Source: Chloroflexota bacterium (GTDB taxonomy: Bacteria; Chloroflexota; Chloroflexia; JAMCWQ01). From it: a DNA stretch of 52,927 nt. Position 1 is the stretch's first letter. The number at the start of each line of letters is the position of its first letter. A program made the position numbers and the translations under genes. Below are positions 2,177 through 15,583 of the stretch, piece by piece. The stretch is from assembly GCA_023480825.1 (NCBI GenBank), contig JAMCWQ010000034.1, positions 1 to 52,927 on the forward strand, written 5' to 3'. The notes beneath the pieces are model-generated. The model was not told the DNA's origin. It worked only from the letters and a program-made list of their open reading frames with translations, and searched no databases.

Positions 2177-3916
2177 CTAGTATTCCAGATAAGCACCTTT
2201 CATTGCTGATGAGGCTCTATCGGTGTATTTCTTATAAACTCCCTTTCTTGGCTCAAATTTCGGAAGCATCCAATGAGACTTCCGGTCTGCGAACGTCTCT
2301 TCCACCTCACTTTGACCACAGCGCCTCCCTGCAATGCCCACCACGTTTAGTCTACGGTTAGCCACGTCCAACTCAATTAAGTCTCCATCTTCCACAAGCG
2401 CTATCGGTCCACCAATGGCAGCTTCTGGTGATATGTGCCCGACAGCAGGACCTCTGGTAGCTCCAGAGAACCGCCCATCAGTTAACAACACTGTTGACCC
2501 GGCCAGTCTGCTATCACACAACATTGCTTCTGTGGTCATGACCATTTCCGGCATGCCTGAACCTCGTGGTCCCTCGTACCGGATAATCAGAACGTCGCCG
2601 GGATTTACTCGATCTCCAACTACACAATAATAGCAATCTTCTTCGGAGTTGAAGACCCTTGCCGGCCCGACGTGGTATCTCATGTCCTCTGCTACGGCGG
2701 CGTACTTAATGACTGCACCTTCAGGGGCTATATTCCCTTTTAACACCGCAATTGAGCCCATTTCTTTTGTTGATTCCAGAGGCCTAATCACCTGCTCGCG
2801 TCTTAATTCATAGTTGCGAAGATACCCTTCAACTCTCTCAAAGAAACCATCATTCTTGACGTCCTGAAGATTCTCCCTTAGAGTCTTTCCGGTTACAGTC
2901 ATCACATCAAGGTTTAGAAAATCCCTGAGCAACCACTCCACCATTGGAATACCTCCGGCGAACCACAAGGCTTCTGTAGGGTACTCGCCACTGGGATAGA
3001 TATTGCCAATATGGGGAATCTTGTGATTTAGCTCATCGAACTTCTCCGGCCTCAATTCAATCCCCAGTTCATGAGCAACTGCTGGCAAATGAAGCATTGC
3101 ATTTGTAGATCCACCTATAGCAGCATGTACCACTACTGCATTATGGAAAGCGTCCGGAGTGAGAATATGTTTTGCCGTAATTCCCTTGTTTACCAACTCC
3201 ATTATCTGTCTTCCTGCTCTTCTTGACGATGCTACGATGTCGCGCATCGTTGCCGGAGCAAGAGCGCTGCCAGGTAATGCTAAACCCAGCGCTTCGGACA
3301 TGCATTGCATTGTGCTTGCTGTGCCCAAGAACTGGCAGGATCCCACTGATGGGCACCCTGTAAGTTTAAAATCTCGAACCTCTTGGGGTGTTATTGCATC
3401 TTTCTTCTTTTCTCTTAGTGAGATGTCTCCTGCTTTCACAGAGGTCGACATGTCCGGTCCAGGCCTCATACTCCCGCCTGGAACGAAGACTGTTGGCAGA
3501 TCCAGGCGAGCTGCTGCCATAAGATGAGCTGGAATCGATTTATCACATGAAGAAATCAAAACCAACCCATCCCATCCGACAAATGATCCATGGATTTCGA
3601 CGATGTCCGCAATCGCATCCCTCGAAGCTAGCACAAAATTCATTCCATTATGCCCTTGCGCACATCCGTCGCAAACATCCGTAACGTGATATTCAGCCGG
3701 CCGTCCTCCTTCTTCATATACTCCGATGCTCACCTGATTACTCAATCCCATAAGATGAGCACTTCCAGGATGACTATCACCAAACACGTCATCAATGAGT
3801 ATCTGCGGCTTTCCTAAGTCTTCCTCATCCCAGCCCATCCCCATCTGGAGAGCATCAAATTGTGCCCAGAGCTTACGTTGCGAGGTGCTTCTTGGTATCG
3901 TCAAACCGTCTTCCAT
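2177..3916 (-). CDS. IlvD/Edd family dehydratase (dihydroxy-acid or sugar-acid dehydratase)
   Basis: The 579 aa product has family motifs: ...[34 protein letters not shown]..., ...[13 protein letters not shown]... and ...[23 protein letters not shown].... Substrate specificity cannot be decided from sequence by eye. Confidence 0.85.
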
Positions 3917-5044: not shown

Positions 5045-5704
5045 TCAGATTTCTTTTCTTGTGTATATCGAATCCGATACCAGCACGGAAATCGCCAGCA
5101 GTAGCAACCCGCCCACAATGCCGATTATCGGCAATAGGTACATGTTGTCAGCGAAGAATTTGACAAATTGGCTCAATTCATTCAAATAGTTCGTCTTGCG
5201 GGTAAGGAGCATGAACCCAAGCAAAATCAGGTACATGGGCAGCATTGCAAAGGGGCTAGCCTTTGCGAAGCCGAACTTGAAATAAATCGGGTAAGCAACG
5301 CCCACTGCGAAGCCATAATAGACAAACGCAAACGCCAGTGCGATCCAAAATGTAACTGGGTCTAAGCTTACATTGAGAACACCTGCAATAACCCAGGAAA
5401 GCACACCCGCAACCACGAGGCTGAACACGCCGATGACCAGCGCGTACAGATACCTGCCCATGATCATCTCATCTCTTTTCAGCGGCAGGATACCGTACAG
5501 TTTGTCGCTGTGATTTTTCTCCTGCGCAGAGAAAACCGTCCCGCCCAAGTATGTGACGAATATCATTACAAACGGCATGGTGAATGCCGGCTGCTTCATC
5601 GCCGCCGCGATGACGATTACGAGCATGAACATGAGAGCCGACAGCTTCAAGGTTGATCTGGCCGTGTAGAAATCGAGTTTTGTCGCATTCAGAATTCTAT
5701 TCAT
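5045..5704 (-). CDS. ABC-2-type integral membrane permease
   Basis: The protein is multi-pass and hydrophobic. Its start MNRIL overlaps the ATPase stop by 8 nt (ATGAATAG). It is the third gene of a GntR/ATPase/permease operon. Confidence 0.65.
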   Translation of the reverse strand: MNRILNATKLDFYTARSTLKLSALMFMLVIVIAAAMKQPAFTMPFVMIFVTYLGGTVFSAQEKNHSDKLYGILPLKRDEMIMGRYLYALVIGVFSLVVAGVLSWVIAGVLNVSLDPVTFWIALAFAFVYYGFAVGVAYPIYFKFGFAKASPFAMLPMYLILLGFMLLTRKTNYLNELSQFVKFFADNMYLLPIIGIVGGLLLLAISVLVSDSIYTRKEI

Positions 5705-6560
5705 GATTTGCTTGCCTCTTGCTGATGTAGACCAAGATTTCATCAATGTCCGGTTCCTCCGTCACAATGCCGCCCGGCAACCCTTGCATCTCTGAAACCG
5801 GCAGCATTCCGGTAAATCCCGTGGATGTGACCGACAGGCCTATGAACTTCCTTTTCAGCGGGTCGGTCAAATCCGCTTTGGTTCCTTTGATCATGCGGAA
5901 ATGCTCCAACAGGCCATCCTTTGTTCCGGTGTAGAATATCTTGCCGTGGTCGATCACGGTGATGTAGTCGGCGATCCGCTCCAAATCGGACGTGATGTGC
6001 GTGGAAAAGAACACACTCTTTTCCCCGTCCGCGACGTACTCCCGCAGAATATCAAGTAGTTCGTCGCGAGCAACCGGGTCAAGGCCGCTGGTCGGCTCGT
6101 CCAGAATCAGCAGCTTCGCGCCGTGGGACATCGCCACCGCCAGCATGAGCTTCAGTTTCATGCCTCGCGATAATTCTTTCACCTGTTTGTCAGGCGAAAG
6201 ATCAAAAGATTTGAGATAATCGTAGTACAGCTTGCTGTCCCATTCACTGTAAAAACCCTTTATAACTTTCTCCACTTCGCGCAGACGCCACGAGTCGACA
6301 AAGAAGATTTCGTCGAACACGGCGGCCAGTTCCTGCTTGACCACGAGTTCATCGCGCACATTGTCTAACCCGAAGATTTTTATCTCGCCGCCAGTCCTCG
6401 CAGCCATGTTCAGGATGCAACGGATCGTAGTTGTTTTGCCCGCGCCGTTCTGTCCGACAAAACCCATAATGTGTCCGGCGGGTAATGAAAAGGATATGGA
6501 ATCCAGCGTAAAATCGGGATAGGTCTTATGGAGGTTCTGTACCTCCAGAGCATTACTCAT
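5697..6560 (-). CDS. ABC transporter ATP-binding protein
   Basis: It has Walker A GQNGAGKTT, the signature LSRGMKLKL and Walker B LLILDEPTSGLD. The start MSNALEVQNL is preceded by GGAGGA and overlaps the GntR stop (ATGAGTAA). Confidence 0.92.
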   Translation of the reverse strand: MSNALEVQNLHKTYPDFTLDSISFSLPAGHIMGFVGQNGAGKTTTIRCILNMAARTGGEIKIFGLDNVRDELVVKQELAAVFDEIFFVDSWRLREVEKVIKGFYSEWDSKLYYDYLKSFDLSPDKQVKELSRGMKLKLMLAVAMSHGAKLLILDEPTSGLDPVARDELLDILREYVADGEKSVFFSTHITSDLERIADYITVIDHGKIFYTGTKDGLLEHFRMIKGTKADLTDPLKRKFIGLSVTSTGFTGMLPVSEMQGLPGGIVTEEPDIDEILVYISKRQANHE

Positions 6561-6936
6561 ACTTATTTTCCTCCAATGTAAATTCAAATAGTCTTCGAAA
6601 TTCTTCACGCGGCAGTTTCGCAATCCGGGCGGCGTTTATCGCGGCATTGAAGCCGTACTCAATTTTGCGGAGAAGCTGCTCGCGTATCAGGTCGCTGTCT
6701 TTCGGGGCAACATAACAGCCTTTGCCCTGTACGTTGACGATATAGCCCTCCTGTTCAAGCTCGGTGTATGCCCGCGTAGTCGTAATGACGCTGACCTTCA
6801 GATCTGCGGCGAGCTGGCGGATGGATGGCAATACATCGCCTTCATTCATTTCACCGTTCAGAATAGCCTCTTTGACCTGCTCCTTGATCTGCTCATAAAT
6901 CGGCATTTCGGACGAGTTCTTGATGATGATCGTCAA
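6553..6936 (-). CDS. GntR family transcriptional regulator, YtrA-like short form
   Basis: The 127 aa product has a winged-HTH: PIYEQIKEQVKEAILNGEMNEGDVLPSIRQLAADLKVSVITTTRAYTELEQEGYI. It is the first gene of the operon. Confidence 0.88.
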   Translation of the reverse strand: MTIIIKNSSEMPIYEQIKEQVKEAILNGEMNEGDVLPSIRQLAADLKVSVITTTRAYTELEQEGYIVNVQGKGCYVAPKDSDLIREQLLRKIEYGFNAAINAARIAKLPREEFRRLFEFTLEENKYE

Positions 6937-13249: not shown

Positions 13250-13869
13250 CTTGCTTCCCAACAACCACTTCTAATGCCAATCTAATACTTGCCGCAGTGC
13301 CGGGCAAGGGGAGAAATACCAGCCGGACATGGGAATATTACCCAGTCCGTAAGCAAGCGAGTGTCGTGCTCGGAGGGGTATGCCACTGGTCTAGGCTCAG
13401 TTAGCGCTTCTCAGGCTTCGCCAGGCATTGACCTGGGTTCCCGATTGTTGCAGGACCTAACAGCAAGTGGTTGGTGCAATCGAGTCCCTCGAGCCCGACT
13501 CCTCCTTAAGCAAGAATTTCGGATCCCATCAAGTGAACTGCGGCATTAGCGTCATGGAGCTGTGCCAACACGATGGCGTGTAGCATGGTGTCGCGGAGGC
13601 AGGGTGGGGATGCTAGATCTAGGCAATAGTGCCTTAACGCGCACATGCTATCTGCGTGTAAGGTCGTATGAATTACTATGGGTTTCGCGCGTGTTCTAGT
13701 GTATACTAAGGGATAGCATAGCAGTTGTAGAAGGCGGATTCCGGGAGAGTCTCTTGGCTCCGTATTTTCAAGCAGCAAATGTGGCTGGACGTTGGTCAAG
13801 TCCTCGTTGCTTTCCATCGCCATTTAATCCGGCAGATTGATTTTCTCAGCGCAAAATGGAGGACCCTTA

Positions 13870-14640
13870 GTGGGTGGAAGGGTATTAAGGAACAAGCCGC
13901 TCGTGGAGGCTGTATTTGAACTGCACTGGGCACTACAGGAGCAACCATCGGGTGGGAAGGTAGACCCGTATTCCAAGATCCTTGTCGGCAGGGTGTACGA
14001 TCTTGTGAAAGACGAATACAGGTTCCACGAGCAGCTTCCGGCTGCTTCGATGCCCGACGAGTTGATCAATTTTGTTCCACAGCATCGATTTAGGGTTGGA
14101 AAGGACCAATGGCCATTGATTCAAATAGGACCTGGTGTCCTTTCTGTTAACGACACTGAGACTTATGGTTGGGAAGATTTCAGTACCCGCATTTCGTCCG
14201 CAGTCAATGTTCTCTGCCAAACATATCCAGATCGCGAGGCGCTGCGGTTCACCGAGTTACAGCTCAGGTATATCGATTCGATCCCATTTGACTATGACGA
14301 GAACAATGTGCTTGACTTTTTGCGGCGCAAAATGAAATTAGTTGTAGAGTTGAGTCCTAGCCTTTTCCAGAATACCGGTGTTGAGAACAAACCACTGGCA
14401 ACCAGCTTCGGGTTCGTGTTTCCTACCAGTGCCCCTGAGGGAGTCATCGAGTTCAGAATCCGAAGTGGAAGCCGTGGTGACGAAACAGCTCTAATATGGG
14501 AGACCCAGATACGTGTGCAAGGCGAAGGTGTGCCCGAGAATGAGAATGGCATTGACGCGTGGGCGAGCGCAGCTCACGAACTTTCAAGCGGCTGGTTTTT
14601 CAAGATTATTGAAGGAGAATTACTGAAGGAGTTCGAGTAA
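13870..14640 (+). CDS. TIGR04255-like uncharacterised protein (gene 1 of a three-gene operon)
   Basis: The ORF is open from 13837. GTG 13870 is preferred because GGAGGA lies 6 nt upstream. The N-terminal signature ...KPLVEAVFELHW... and the length of about 256 aa match my recollection of the sporadically distributed TIGR04255 family. Confidence 0.6.
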   Translation: MGGRVLRNKPLVEAVFELHWALQEQPSGGKVDPYSKILVGRVYDLVKDEYRFHEQLPAASMPDELINFVPQHRFRVGKDQWPLIQIGPGVLSVNDTETYGWEDFSTRISSAVNVLCQTYPDREALRFTELQLRYIDSIPFDYDENNVLDFLRRKMKLVVELSPSLFQNTGVENKPLATSFGFVFPTSAPEGVIEFRIRSGSRGDETALIWETQIRVQGEGVPENENGIDAWASAAHELSSGWFFKIIEGELLKEFE

Positions 14641-15056
14641 TGCCACTTGATACGCGCCAGTACGCGAAGCAGATTCGCCAGTGGCCATATATGTCTCAGT
14701 CTGTGAATACAAACGTAGAGCTAGGCTATTTCCTAGCGGAGACCTTGCCAACTAGCAGCAAGCTTGTCGTCATGTCGGAAAGGGCAGACGAATTTTGGAA
14801 ATGGCACGCCTTCTATGAAGGCCAGTCACTGGCTGAAATGCTTACAGCCGGAACTACCAGCCAAGGAATTGAGCCTACAGAGGGCGTGTGGGACGATCTG
14901 CCAATCCATCACAAGCACGATGACTCCGACATCGAGCAAGAGCTCACTGGCTGTCTCGCTCCTAAGAAGAGCTATAGCGTCGAATTGGAAGTCAAGAGTA
15001 TCACCAAGGGGAAGTTAGCGACATATAACTCCGAGGACTTCAACGAGGAATTGTAG
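14640..15056 (+). CDS. Hypothetical acidic protein (gene 2 of the three-gene operon)
   Basis: Its ATG overlaps the upstream TAA by 1 nt (TAATG, 14638-14642). A GAAGGAG SD lies 8 nt upstream. No recognisable domain. Confidence 0.6.
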   Translation: MPLDTRQYAKQIRQWPYMSQSVNTNVELGYFLAETLPTSSKLVVMSERADEFWKWHAFYEGQSLAEMLTAGTTSQGIEPTEGVWDDLPIHHKHDDSDIEQELTGCLAPKKSYSVELEVKSITKGKLATYNSEDFNEEL

Positions 15057-15583
15057 TGATACGAACTTATCCTTGGTATGATAAGGTGGATAGAGAGCAG
15101 GCTCTAGCTCAAGGCGACGTTATCAAGTCATGTCCAACTGCGGTACCCCGCGTTCTACCTCATGGTGAATCAAAGCTGTCGGCGGACATCTCGGAGTACG
15201 ATGTGATTGTGATGAGTCAGTCCTGCGATCTTGAATTCAAGAAGTTGCGTTTCGTTCTCGTGTGCCCATTGGCGGAGTTGCCCCAGGCAAAGGAGCTTAT
15301 ACCTGAACTGAAGGAAAAAGGCCGATGCGAGTCGGTAAGAAGAGGCAATGTCCCGGGTCTGCACATGCTGAATAAATGTGACATAAAGGGCATGGAAACG
15401 GACTACTTCGTCGTTGATTTCAAGACCGCGCTCAGTGTGCCCTTCGAACTTCTTGAGACGCTGGTTCAAGGAAATCGTCGCACCATGCGTCTGCTCCCTC
15501 CATACAGAGAACAGCTGTCGCAAGCCTTTGCGAGATTTTTCATGAGAGTTGGCCTGCCGGTTGATATCCCAGGCTTTAAGTAG
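15056..15583 (+). CDS. Hypothetical protein with a conserved-looking QSCD motif (gene 3 of the three-gene operon)
   Basis: Its GTG overlaps the upstream TAG by 1 nt (TAGTG, 15054-15058). A GAGGAA SD lies 5 nt upstream. It has the motif YDVIVMSQSCDLEF and a C-terminal ...LLPPYREQLSQAFARFFMRVGLPVDIP. No family recognised. Confidence 0.6.
   Translation: MIRTYPWYDKVDREQALAQGDVIKSCPTAVPRVLPHGESKLSADISEYDVIVMSQSCDLEFKKLRFVLVCPLAELPQAKELIPELKEKGRCESVRRGNVPGLHMLNKCDIKGMETDYFVVDFKTALSVPFELLETLVQGNRRTMRLLPPYREQLSQAFARFFMRVGLPVDIPGFK

Follow-up and report, generated by a model that had tools for sequence, protein, structure and literature searches.

A TIGR04255-led three-gene cassette, probably of toxin-antitoxin type, with a predicted MazF-fold third protein on a Chloroflexota contig

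The contig JAMCWQ010000034.1 of a Chloroflexota bacterium (assembly GCA_023480825.1), analysed here over its full length of 52,927 nucleotides (nt) and referred to as the window, carries a compact cluster of three genes that we read as a probable toxin-antitoxin (TA)-type cassette (Table 1). According to the sequence and the list of open reading frames (ORFs), genes 1 to 3 lie on the same strand and are translationally coupled. The stop codon of each of the first two genes overlaps the start codon of the next by 1 nt (TAATG at 14638-14642 for gene 1/gene 2 and TAGTG at 15054-15058 for gene 2/gene 3), and each gene has its own Shine-Dalgarno site. The longest ORF of gene 1 begins at TTG 13837; the alignment of homologues favours GTG 13870 as the start and also backs GTG 15056 as the start of gene 3. 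An earlier sequence-only reading of this DNA had described the same coupled layout. Re-reading of the sequence confirmed all coordinates, and the motifs NKPLVEAVFEL, DVIVMSQSCDL and RFFMRVGLPVDIP were all found. Its assignment of gene 1 to the TIGR04255 family holds as well: the NCBIfam profile is matched over its full length (profile positions 2-252 of 252) with an E-value (E) of 2.1e-39 and 135.8 bits, compared to a curated cutoff of 30 bits. Gene 1 has no match in Pfam or PADLOC. Genes 2 and 3, which the sequence-only reading did not recognise, are both without a match in Pfam (for gene 3 at E ≤ 1), NCBIfam and PADLOC.

Table 1. Features of the three-gene cassette and its upstream region, in positions of the window.
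Feature	Position	Strand	Description
Gene 1	13870..14640	+	TIGR04255 family protein, 256 amino acids (aa); putative accessory partner of the cassette
Gene 2	14640..15056	+	Acidic 138-aa protein, predicted antitoxin/adaptor; N-terminal part divergent
Gene 3	15056..15583	+	175 aa; undescribed family with predicted MazF/PemK/CcdB-type fold; predicted toxin
Shine-Dalgarno site of gene 1	13858..13863	+	GGAGGA, 6 nt 5' of GTG 13870, read directly
Shine-Dalgarno site of gene 2	14625..14631	+	GAAGGAG, 8 nt 5' of ATG 14640
Shine-Dalgarno site of gene 3	15045..15050	+	GAGGAA, 5 nt 5' of GTG 15056
Gene 2 conserved C-terminal module	14922..15038	+	Residues ~95-133, DIEQELTGCLAPKKSYSVELEVKSITKGK; sole part aligned by the profile; predicted to bind gene 3
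Gene 3 Q55-S56-C57-D58	15218..15229	+	C57 100%, D58 99%, Q55 96% conserved; candidate active-site residues
Gene 3 C-terminal helix motif	15500..15559	+	PYREQLSQAFARFFMRVGLP, residues 149-168; P149, E152 and R164 each 99%, Y150 and M163 96% conserved
Upstream gap	13265..13869	+	~600 nt, guanine-cytosine (GC) content 0.52, only short ORFs without family support

The family of gene 3 is large, with 3578 clusters at 90% identity and 2362 at 50% identity, and nearly all of its members are stand-alone proteins of 165-215 aa annotated as 'hypothetical'. Sequence and profile searches with gene 3 against solved structures returned nothing. Its AlphaFold (AF2) model has a predicted local distance difference test score (pLDDT) of 86.7 and a predicted template modelling score (pTM) of 0.83. 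When this model was compared with the PDB by Foldseek, the top 35 matches were all MazF/Kid/PemK-type toxins or their complexes with antitoxins (best E 1.7e-4; template modelling (TM) score normalised to the target 0.58-0.73; ~10% identity), and CcdB appeared lower in the list. The predicted fold of gene 3 is that of the SH3-like barrel of MazF, Kid and CcdB. A type III toxin of the ToxN/AbiQ type was also considered and rejected, as none is present in the top 50 fold matches. By eye and in a short register given by hhalign, the N-terminal QGD strand and the 'VIVMS...LVLVCP' strands of gene 3 resemble the 'GD' and 'RPxVVLS...VxVxPxT' elements of PemK. Conservation was assessed on 138 diverse representatives (139 aligned sequences with the window protein). 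Near-invariant positions are W7, Y8, Q19-G20-D21, Q55-S56-C57-D58, K63, C70, G97, H103 and P149-Y-R-E...R160...M163-R164-V-G-L-P. The first helix of the model begins at residue 56, with the QSCD motif at its start.

The middle gene was less accessible. A single-sequence search of 5.8 billion proteins with gene 2 retrieved only itself and iterated hidden Markov models (HMMs) therefore had to be built locally, from the genes directly upstream of gene 3 in 87 loci. A homologous small gene with the C-terminal module of gene 2 is located directly upstream of gene 3 in 74 of these 87 loci, and an upstream-gene HMM built without the window gene 2 matches the latter with an E of 2.4e-9. The part common to the family is the last ~40 residues (consensus 'iEhDivVrMPPKk.YtVev.vKsI.KA.P.ivEPE'). 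The N-terminal part spans ~85 residues where close TIGR04255 homologues are present and is nearly missing in minimal forms of 70 aa, which are too short to leave space for a DNA-binding domain. Gene 2 evolves fast apart from its conserved C-terminal module. This module is also found in larger proteins that directly precede a gene 3 homologue, where the N-terminal part gives way to other domains and the module is fused to a RES domain (PF08808, E 4e-8) in a metagenome-assembled genome (MAG) of the Chloroflexia (L047, 367-1488) and to TPR repeats in a Planctomycetes MAG (L065, 5006-5980). Fusions of gene 2 with gene 3 are not found among the longer family members. Compared with solved structures, gene 2 gave only chance-level matches to gasdermin and L13.

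The arrangement is not due to chance, as dozens of unrelated genomes have the three genes in the same order. Gene 1 and gene 2 overlap in 82% of 38 loci, mostly by 1 or 4 nt, and the spacer between gene 2 and gene 3 is at most 30 nt in 95% of them. Of 71 genome loci that could be evaluated, 40 have a TIGR04255-like gene two genes upstream of gene 3. Genes 1 to 3 thus occur together widely, albeit patchily, in both Bacteria and Archaea, which answers the question of co-occurrence raised by the sequence-only reading. The conserved core is the pair of gene 2 and gene 3; TIGR04255 often accompanies this pair, in about half of the gene 3 loci, but can be replaced. Other loci comprise the pair alone beside housekeeping genes, or the pair with a different upstream partner, such as a ThsB-like TIR protein (PF08937, E 5e-25) just 5' of a short gene 2 and gene 3 (L073, 1776-2453) or a DUF6414 protein (L003).

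The cassette was also surveyed from the side of gene 1, in 69 metagenomic loci of close homologues with sufficient downstream sequence. Gene 2 and gene 3 follow gene 1 in 39 of the 69, with 368-448 nt between gene 1 and gene 3. In the other 30, gene 3 is replaced and the gene next to gene 1 on the downstream side encodes a middle protein of 119-182 aa, which matches the HMM of the gene 2 N-terminal domain in 25 cases (E down to 5e-36), although none of those 25 proteins had entered that HMM. In at least 27 of these 30 replacement loci, the third gene encodes a protein of 133-137 aa, and all five that were tested contain a PIN domain (PF01850; two by Pfam with E 7.5e-14 and 1.5e-8, the others, L094 and its duplicates, from precomputed Pfam annotation). 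At another locus (L131), the third gene encodes a canonical PemK/MazF toxin (PF02452, E 1.5e-9). The C-terminal tail of the middle protein varies with the toxin: a 'PPKK' module accompanies gene 3, a helical '...FDEAVKRRxLF' tail accompanies PIN and an acidic, Trp-containing tail accompanies PemK. Because gene 3 is swapped for PIN or PemK in sister operons and is predicted to have a MazF-type fold itself, it occupies the toxin slot of the operon.

A few loci depart from these arrangements. In two archaeal loci (L054, 4680-5591; L071, 4933-5601), partners of 303 and 222 aa, respectively, take the usual place of TIGR04255; they have a 'DIRPIFN' motif in common and belong to no Pfam family. On the chromosome of Promethearchaeum syntrophicum MK-D1 (L059, 2794492-2806998), a gene 3 homologue with 48% identity is preceded by genes that are unmatched by the HMMs of genes 1 and 2, and this locus may be a further variant of the cassette. 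Conversely, two metagenome contigs (L108, L109) carry gene 1 and a full-length gene 2 with the predicted gene 3-binding module, and no gene 3 ORF is present downstream. Such loci may represent cassettes that have decayed, or else orphan antitoxins.

The role of gene 1 is approached through its structure. It has 333 homologues with ~50% identity, of which the close ones are 255-260 aa long and occur in Bacteria and Archaea; it is absent from the phage collection searched. Its AF2 model (pLDDT 85.8, pTM 0.85) is predicted to consist of two repeats, each with the topology strand-helix-four strands-helix (beta-alpha-beta4-alpha), and the order of its predicted secondary-structure elements is compatible with two S1-H1-S2-S3-S4-S5-H2 repeats as in TBP-like domains. 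Foldseek yielded weak matches to TBP, START/Bet v1, the double-START protein DynU16, AdoMetDC and CYTH, and no close relative, either solved or viral. TBP reaches a probability of 0.96-0.98 with a TM score of 0.27-0.37, and AdoMetDC, START/Bet v1 and CYTH score alike. Sequence and profile searches against solved structures gave nothing for gene 1. Tentatively, the model suggests a tandem TBP-like fold of a binding type. No paper that we found mentions TIGR04255, CHP04255 or IPR026349.

With gene 3 in the toxin position and predicted to have a toxin fold, and with gene 2 made up of two parts, the simplest reading is a three-component cassette of the TA type. We consider it probable that the locus is such a cassette, horizontally acquired, in which gene 3 is the toxin, gene 2 the antitoxin/adaptor and gene 1 an accessory component. 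The antitoxin-before-toxin order is the usual one in TA operons, and gene 2 is acidic (isoelectric point (pI) 4.7) and gene 3 basic (pI 8.3). Gene 3 would represent a new toxin family on the SH3-like barrel of MazF/PemK/CcdB, with its own set of invariant residues (QGD, QSCD, H103 and PYRE...R164), and would most likely act as a nuclease, with RNA as its presumed target, or as another growth inhibitor directed at nucleic acids. The C-terminal 40 residues of gene 2 would hold and neutralise gene 3, and its N-terminal part would tether gene 1. The latter may serve as a sensing or regulating subunit and, by analogy with the TBP-like domains of RnlA, may bind nucleic acid. Translational coupling would fix the proportion of the three proteins. 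Phage infection, stress or loss of the element, for instance, could cause gene 2 to be lost or displaced; this would release gene 3, which would then arrest growth.

Several observations weigh against this reading. At the level of sequence, gene 3 is not linked to MazF: there is no match to PF02452 or any other Pfam family at E ≤ 1, and hhalign of the gene 3 family with MazF/Kid/YdcE gives a probability of 0.15%. As hhalign gave no signal, the link is one of fold only. The catalytic residues of E. coli MazF are R29 and T52. In the hhalign register, which has no statistical support and was complemented by reading by eye, T52 lies opposite A73 of gene 3 (W in most homologues) and no Arg is found at the position of R29. 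The catalytic Arg and Thr thus appear not to be kept, and the activity of gene 3 may therefore differ from that of MazF. An invariant Cys is, moreover, unusual in an RNase, and the median pI of the gene 3 family is near neutral (6.15). For gene 2, the N-terminus of the window protein is unmatched by the N-domain HMM, and Pfam and NCBIfam reveal no DNA-binding domain of the kind present in classical type II antitoxins. The fold assignment of gene 1 is weak (TM 0.15-0.37). None of the three proteins matches PADLOC-DB v2.0.0 at E ≤ 1, and the gene 3 family is rare in viral contigs (six loci in 2.9 million) and absent from 72,556 PLSDB plasmids. Housekeeping proteins make up most of the 108 neighbours in 29 loci, with a minority of TA, restriction-modification or abortive-infection (Abi) proteins.

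The invariant cysteine leads to a different view of gene 3 within the same architecture, namely that of a thiol-dependent enzyme (peptidase, transferase or amidase) on a MazF scaffold rather than an RNase. In that case, H103 and an acidic residue would assist C57, and the target would be a protein of the host or of a phage, or else the conserved C-terminal module of gene 2. The conservation of C57 (100%), D58 (99%) and H103 (88%) is consistent with such a centre, and so is the predicted position of C57 at the N-terminus of a helix, a common place for nucleophilic cysteines. The apparent absence of the MazF catalytic residues points in the same direction, and the C-terminal module of gene 2 shows a degree of conservation that is unusual in the tail of an antitoxin but might be expected of a substrate or pseudosubstrate. 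Yet, no thiol enzyme is found among the top 50 fold matches of gene 3, and PIN and PemK, by which it is replaced in sister operons, are RNases; we regard this explanation as unlikely. A joint reading fares somewhat better, although we still give it a low probability. It holds that TIGR04255 and the N-terminal domain of the middle protein form a general plug-and-play sensor/regulator. In both Bacteria and Archaea, Asgard archaea among them, this unit could be connected to no fewer than three kinds of toxin, namely PIN, MazF and the gene 3 family. The latter would be a new class of non-RNase enzymatic toxins in which the MazF barrel houses an active site built around a cysteine, and the whole would constitute a new tripartite abortive-infection family.

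The roles could also be reversed. TIGR04255 (or RES, TIR or DUF6414 in its place) would then be the effector, kept off by a regulatory or sensing clamp that gene 3 forms with the tail of gene 2. Known effector domains do accompany the C-terminal module and gene 3 elsewhere, as seen for the RES domain fused to the module and the ThsB-like TIR protein upstream of it, and gene 1 equals gene 3 in its degree of conservation, many of its polar residues being invariant. However, many loci consist of the 70-aa form of gene 2 and gene 3 only and thus lack a candidate effector, gene 3 is exchanged behind gene 1 for bona fide toxins (PIN, PemK) rather than regulators, and the predicted fold of gene 1 resembles binding domains and not any known toxin. 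This reversal therefore ranks below the thiol enzyme in our estimate. Least probable in our view is a role outside of genetic conflict, in which the three proteins form a dispensable housekeeping or regulatory complex (e.g., in RNA processing or stress regulation) that is only incidentally mobile. Mostly housekeeping neighbours, a very high sequence conservation across domains of life and the missing PADLOC match agree with this idea. The patchy distribution (at least 565 of 185,579 species) and the exchange with PIN and PemK toxins make it unlikely, and the association with RES, TIR, HEPN/nucleotidyltransferase and restriction-modification genes, the fast-evolving middle gene and the atypical composition speak against it as well.

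Read as a TA-type cassette, the locus can be compared with known systems. It is closest in appearance to MazEF and PemIK (Kid-Kis): the predicted fold of gene 3 matches MazF/Kid best, a small acidic protein is encoded directly upstream in translational coupling, the conserved C-terminal tail of that protein is presumably neutralising, and a canonical PemK takes the same operon position in the sister locus L131. In contrast to these systems, gene 3 has neither a PF02452 match nor profile similarity, is ~60 residues longer with a helical insert according to the model, and has different conserved residues (QSCD, H103, PYRE...R). Gene 2 also lacks an AbrB or RHH DNA-binding domain, and TIGR04255 is present as a third gene. 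The resemblance to VapBC resides in the sister operons, as ~40% of the close TIGR04255 operons have the 133-137 aa gene in the place of gene 3, encoding PIN wherever tested, after a middle protein with the N-terminal domain of gene 2. The window itself contains no PIN domain, and the relation is thus one of slot equivalence, not of homology.

In functional terms, the closest analogy for gene 1 is with the antiphage toxins RnlA/LsoA and their antitoxin RnlB, where a tandem TBP-like module is likewise combined with an RNase-type toxin restrained by an antitoxin. RnlA/LsoA carry two TBP-like domains before a HEPN RNase, and TBP1 is required for substrate binding (PMC8266594; PMC3710099). Unlike in RnlA, the putative TBP-like protein is a separate polypeptide here, which would be joined to the toxin through gene 2, and the predicted fold of gene 3 is MazF-like instead of HEPN. 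The TBP-like label of gene 1 derives from weak Foldseek matches and topology, and RnlA is not among the top 50. In a wider sense, type II TA networks are characterised by partner swapping, the recurrence of MazF/PemK and PIN folds, and antitoxins that consist of a neutralising element and an accessory domain (PMC10440598). Much as in the Panacea/PanA and NetFlax networks, in which toxin and antitoxin modules exchange partners and the antitoxin combines a toxin-specific element with an accessory domain, the modules of the present cassette are exchanged. Adjacent small genes with the antitoxin first, conserved junctions and a patchy horizontal distribution are further features in common with type II TA systems. 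Three-gene TA operons exist as well (TAC, omega-epsilon-zeta and paaR-paaA-parE). Here, however, the accessory element is TIGR04255 with the N-terminal domain of gene 2, and not a known chaperone or repressor as third component; no relation of the cassette to SecB, omega or PaaR was found in sequence or fold.

The underlying logic, that of toxin and antitoxin, is therefore known. New are the gene 3 family with its predicted MazF fold and the two-part antitoxin/adaptor of gene 2, neither of which is represented in Pfam, NCBIfam, PADLOC or the PDB. Two undescribed families are thereby defined, of which the predicted MazF-fold family alone comprises over 2,300 clusters at the 50% identity level. 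TIGR04255 obtains a first functional context as the lead gene of three-gene cassettes that end in an interchangeable toxin, a predicted one in the case of gene 3. The clean swapping of modules, in which one N-terminal domain is combined with one of three toxin-specific tails, leads to direct predictions on binding and toxicity. Moreover, the family occurs in a cultured Asgard archaeon (P. syntrophicum MK-D1) and in methanogens, in which TA and defence biology is little explored.

The gene 3 family is present in at least 565 of the 185,579 species covered by a motif-limited scan, with ~50-57% identity. Its hosts include Methanothrix, Methanosarcinales, Asgard archaea, Planctomycetota, Chloroflexota, Nitrospirota and Omnitrophota. 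Its distribution in both domains is patchy. Cassettes are inserted between unrelated housekeeping genes. Together with the patchy spread and the low GC content of the islet, this indicates that the cassette is horizontally acquired or mobile. In PHROGs, matches were weak and limited to families of unknown function.

The sequence-only reading had further proposed a defence-type module. Its TA-like character is borne out by the predicted MazF-type fold and the PIN/PemK swaps, but the loci do not clearly belong to defence islands, given the mostly housekeeping neighbours. Among the latter, isolated matches concern PIN (three proteins), M78 peptidase (two), HTH (two), a type I methyltransferase, AbiEi, HmaC, mad2 and a type II restriction endonuclease. 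Counting neighbours and partners together, TA or defence proteins comprise PIN, HEPN/nucleotidyltransferase, ThsB-like TIR, RES, DUF6414, AbiEi and restriction-modification proteins. One locus stands in richer surroundings: in a complete genome of 2.19 Mb (L094; CP184673.1, 873091-887864), a TIGR04255-adaptor-PIN cassette is accompanied by type III CRISPR RAMP genes, a HEPN/nucleotidyltransferase pair, an IS110 transposase and MjaI-type restriction-modification genes. This region is a hotspot for defence or mobile elements. On plasmid NZ_CP118267.1 of Pantoea sp. Lij88 (L181, 4983-6831), a distant TIGR04255 protein (22% identity) leads a three-gene cluster that occupies a prophage accessory slot between the lysis cassette and the terminase. 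The two downstream proteins of that cluster (189 and 149 aa) match no Pfam family and nothing else convincingly. As TA-type modules are often antiphage, a defence function of the cassette is plausible. In the literature searched, DUF6414 is only found as the DolA component of the Dodola system; the DUF6414 protein at L003 matched no PADLOC model, and a link to Dodola is not claimed.

In the window, the flanks of the cassette are unrelated to it, as earlier noted, with a Gfo/Idh/MocA oxidoreductase on the right and a Cys-rich protein without a Pfam match on the left. Likewise in line with the sequence-only reading, neither an integrase nor a flanking repeat is present near the islet. Scans for Rfam families, tRNA genes, promoters, terminators and repeats around the islet yielded neither a boundary nor an RNA feature, and no tRNA gene lies within 12 kb of it. 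The possibility of prophage cargo was rejected, with phage genes being absent nearby. The gap upstream of gene 1 is unusually long for a compact genome region. It presumably contains the promoter of the operon; within 13265-13869, no sigma-70-like site and no Rfam match were found.

The islet had also been described as AT-rich. Indeed, its GC content (0.500) is below most of the window (mean 0.565, standard deviation 0.024, in 1747-nt windows) and belongs to the lowest 2%. At third codon positions (GC3), the cassette genes have 0.54-0.62, whereas 0.67-0.76 was measured for the flanking genes and others nearby. However, low GC is not unique to the islet, and its composition is only suggestive because the IlvD gene is equally low or lower and an ABC transporter similarly low in GC. 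The IlvD (dihydroxy-acid dehydratase) gene at 2177-3916 on the minus strand has the lowest GC in the window (GC 0.49, GC3 0.45). It is located ~700 nt from the sole tRNA gene of the window (tRNA-Pro, 1421-1496) and may be a horizontally replaced housekeeping gene. The ABC transporter pair at 5045-6623, also on the minus strand, consists of an ABC_tran ATPase and an ABC-2 membrane protein (GC 0.48-0.51, GC3 0.63-0.65) and forms a second patch of atypical composition in the window.

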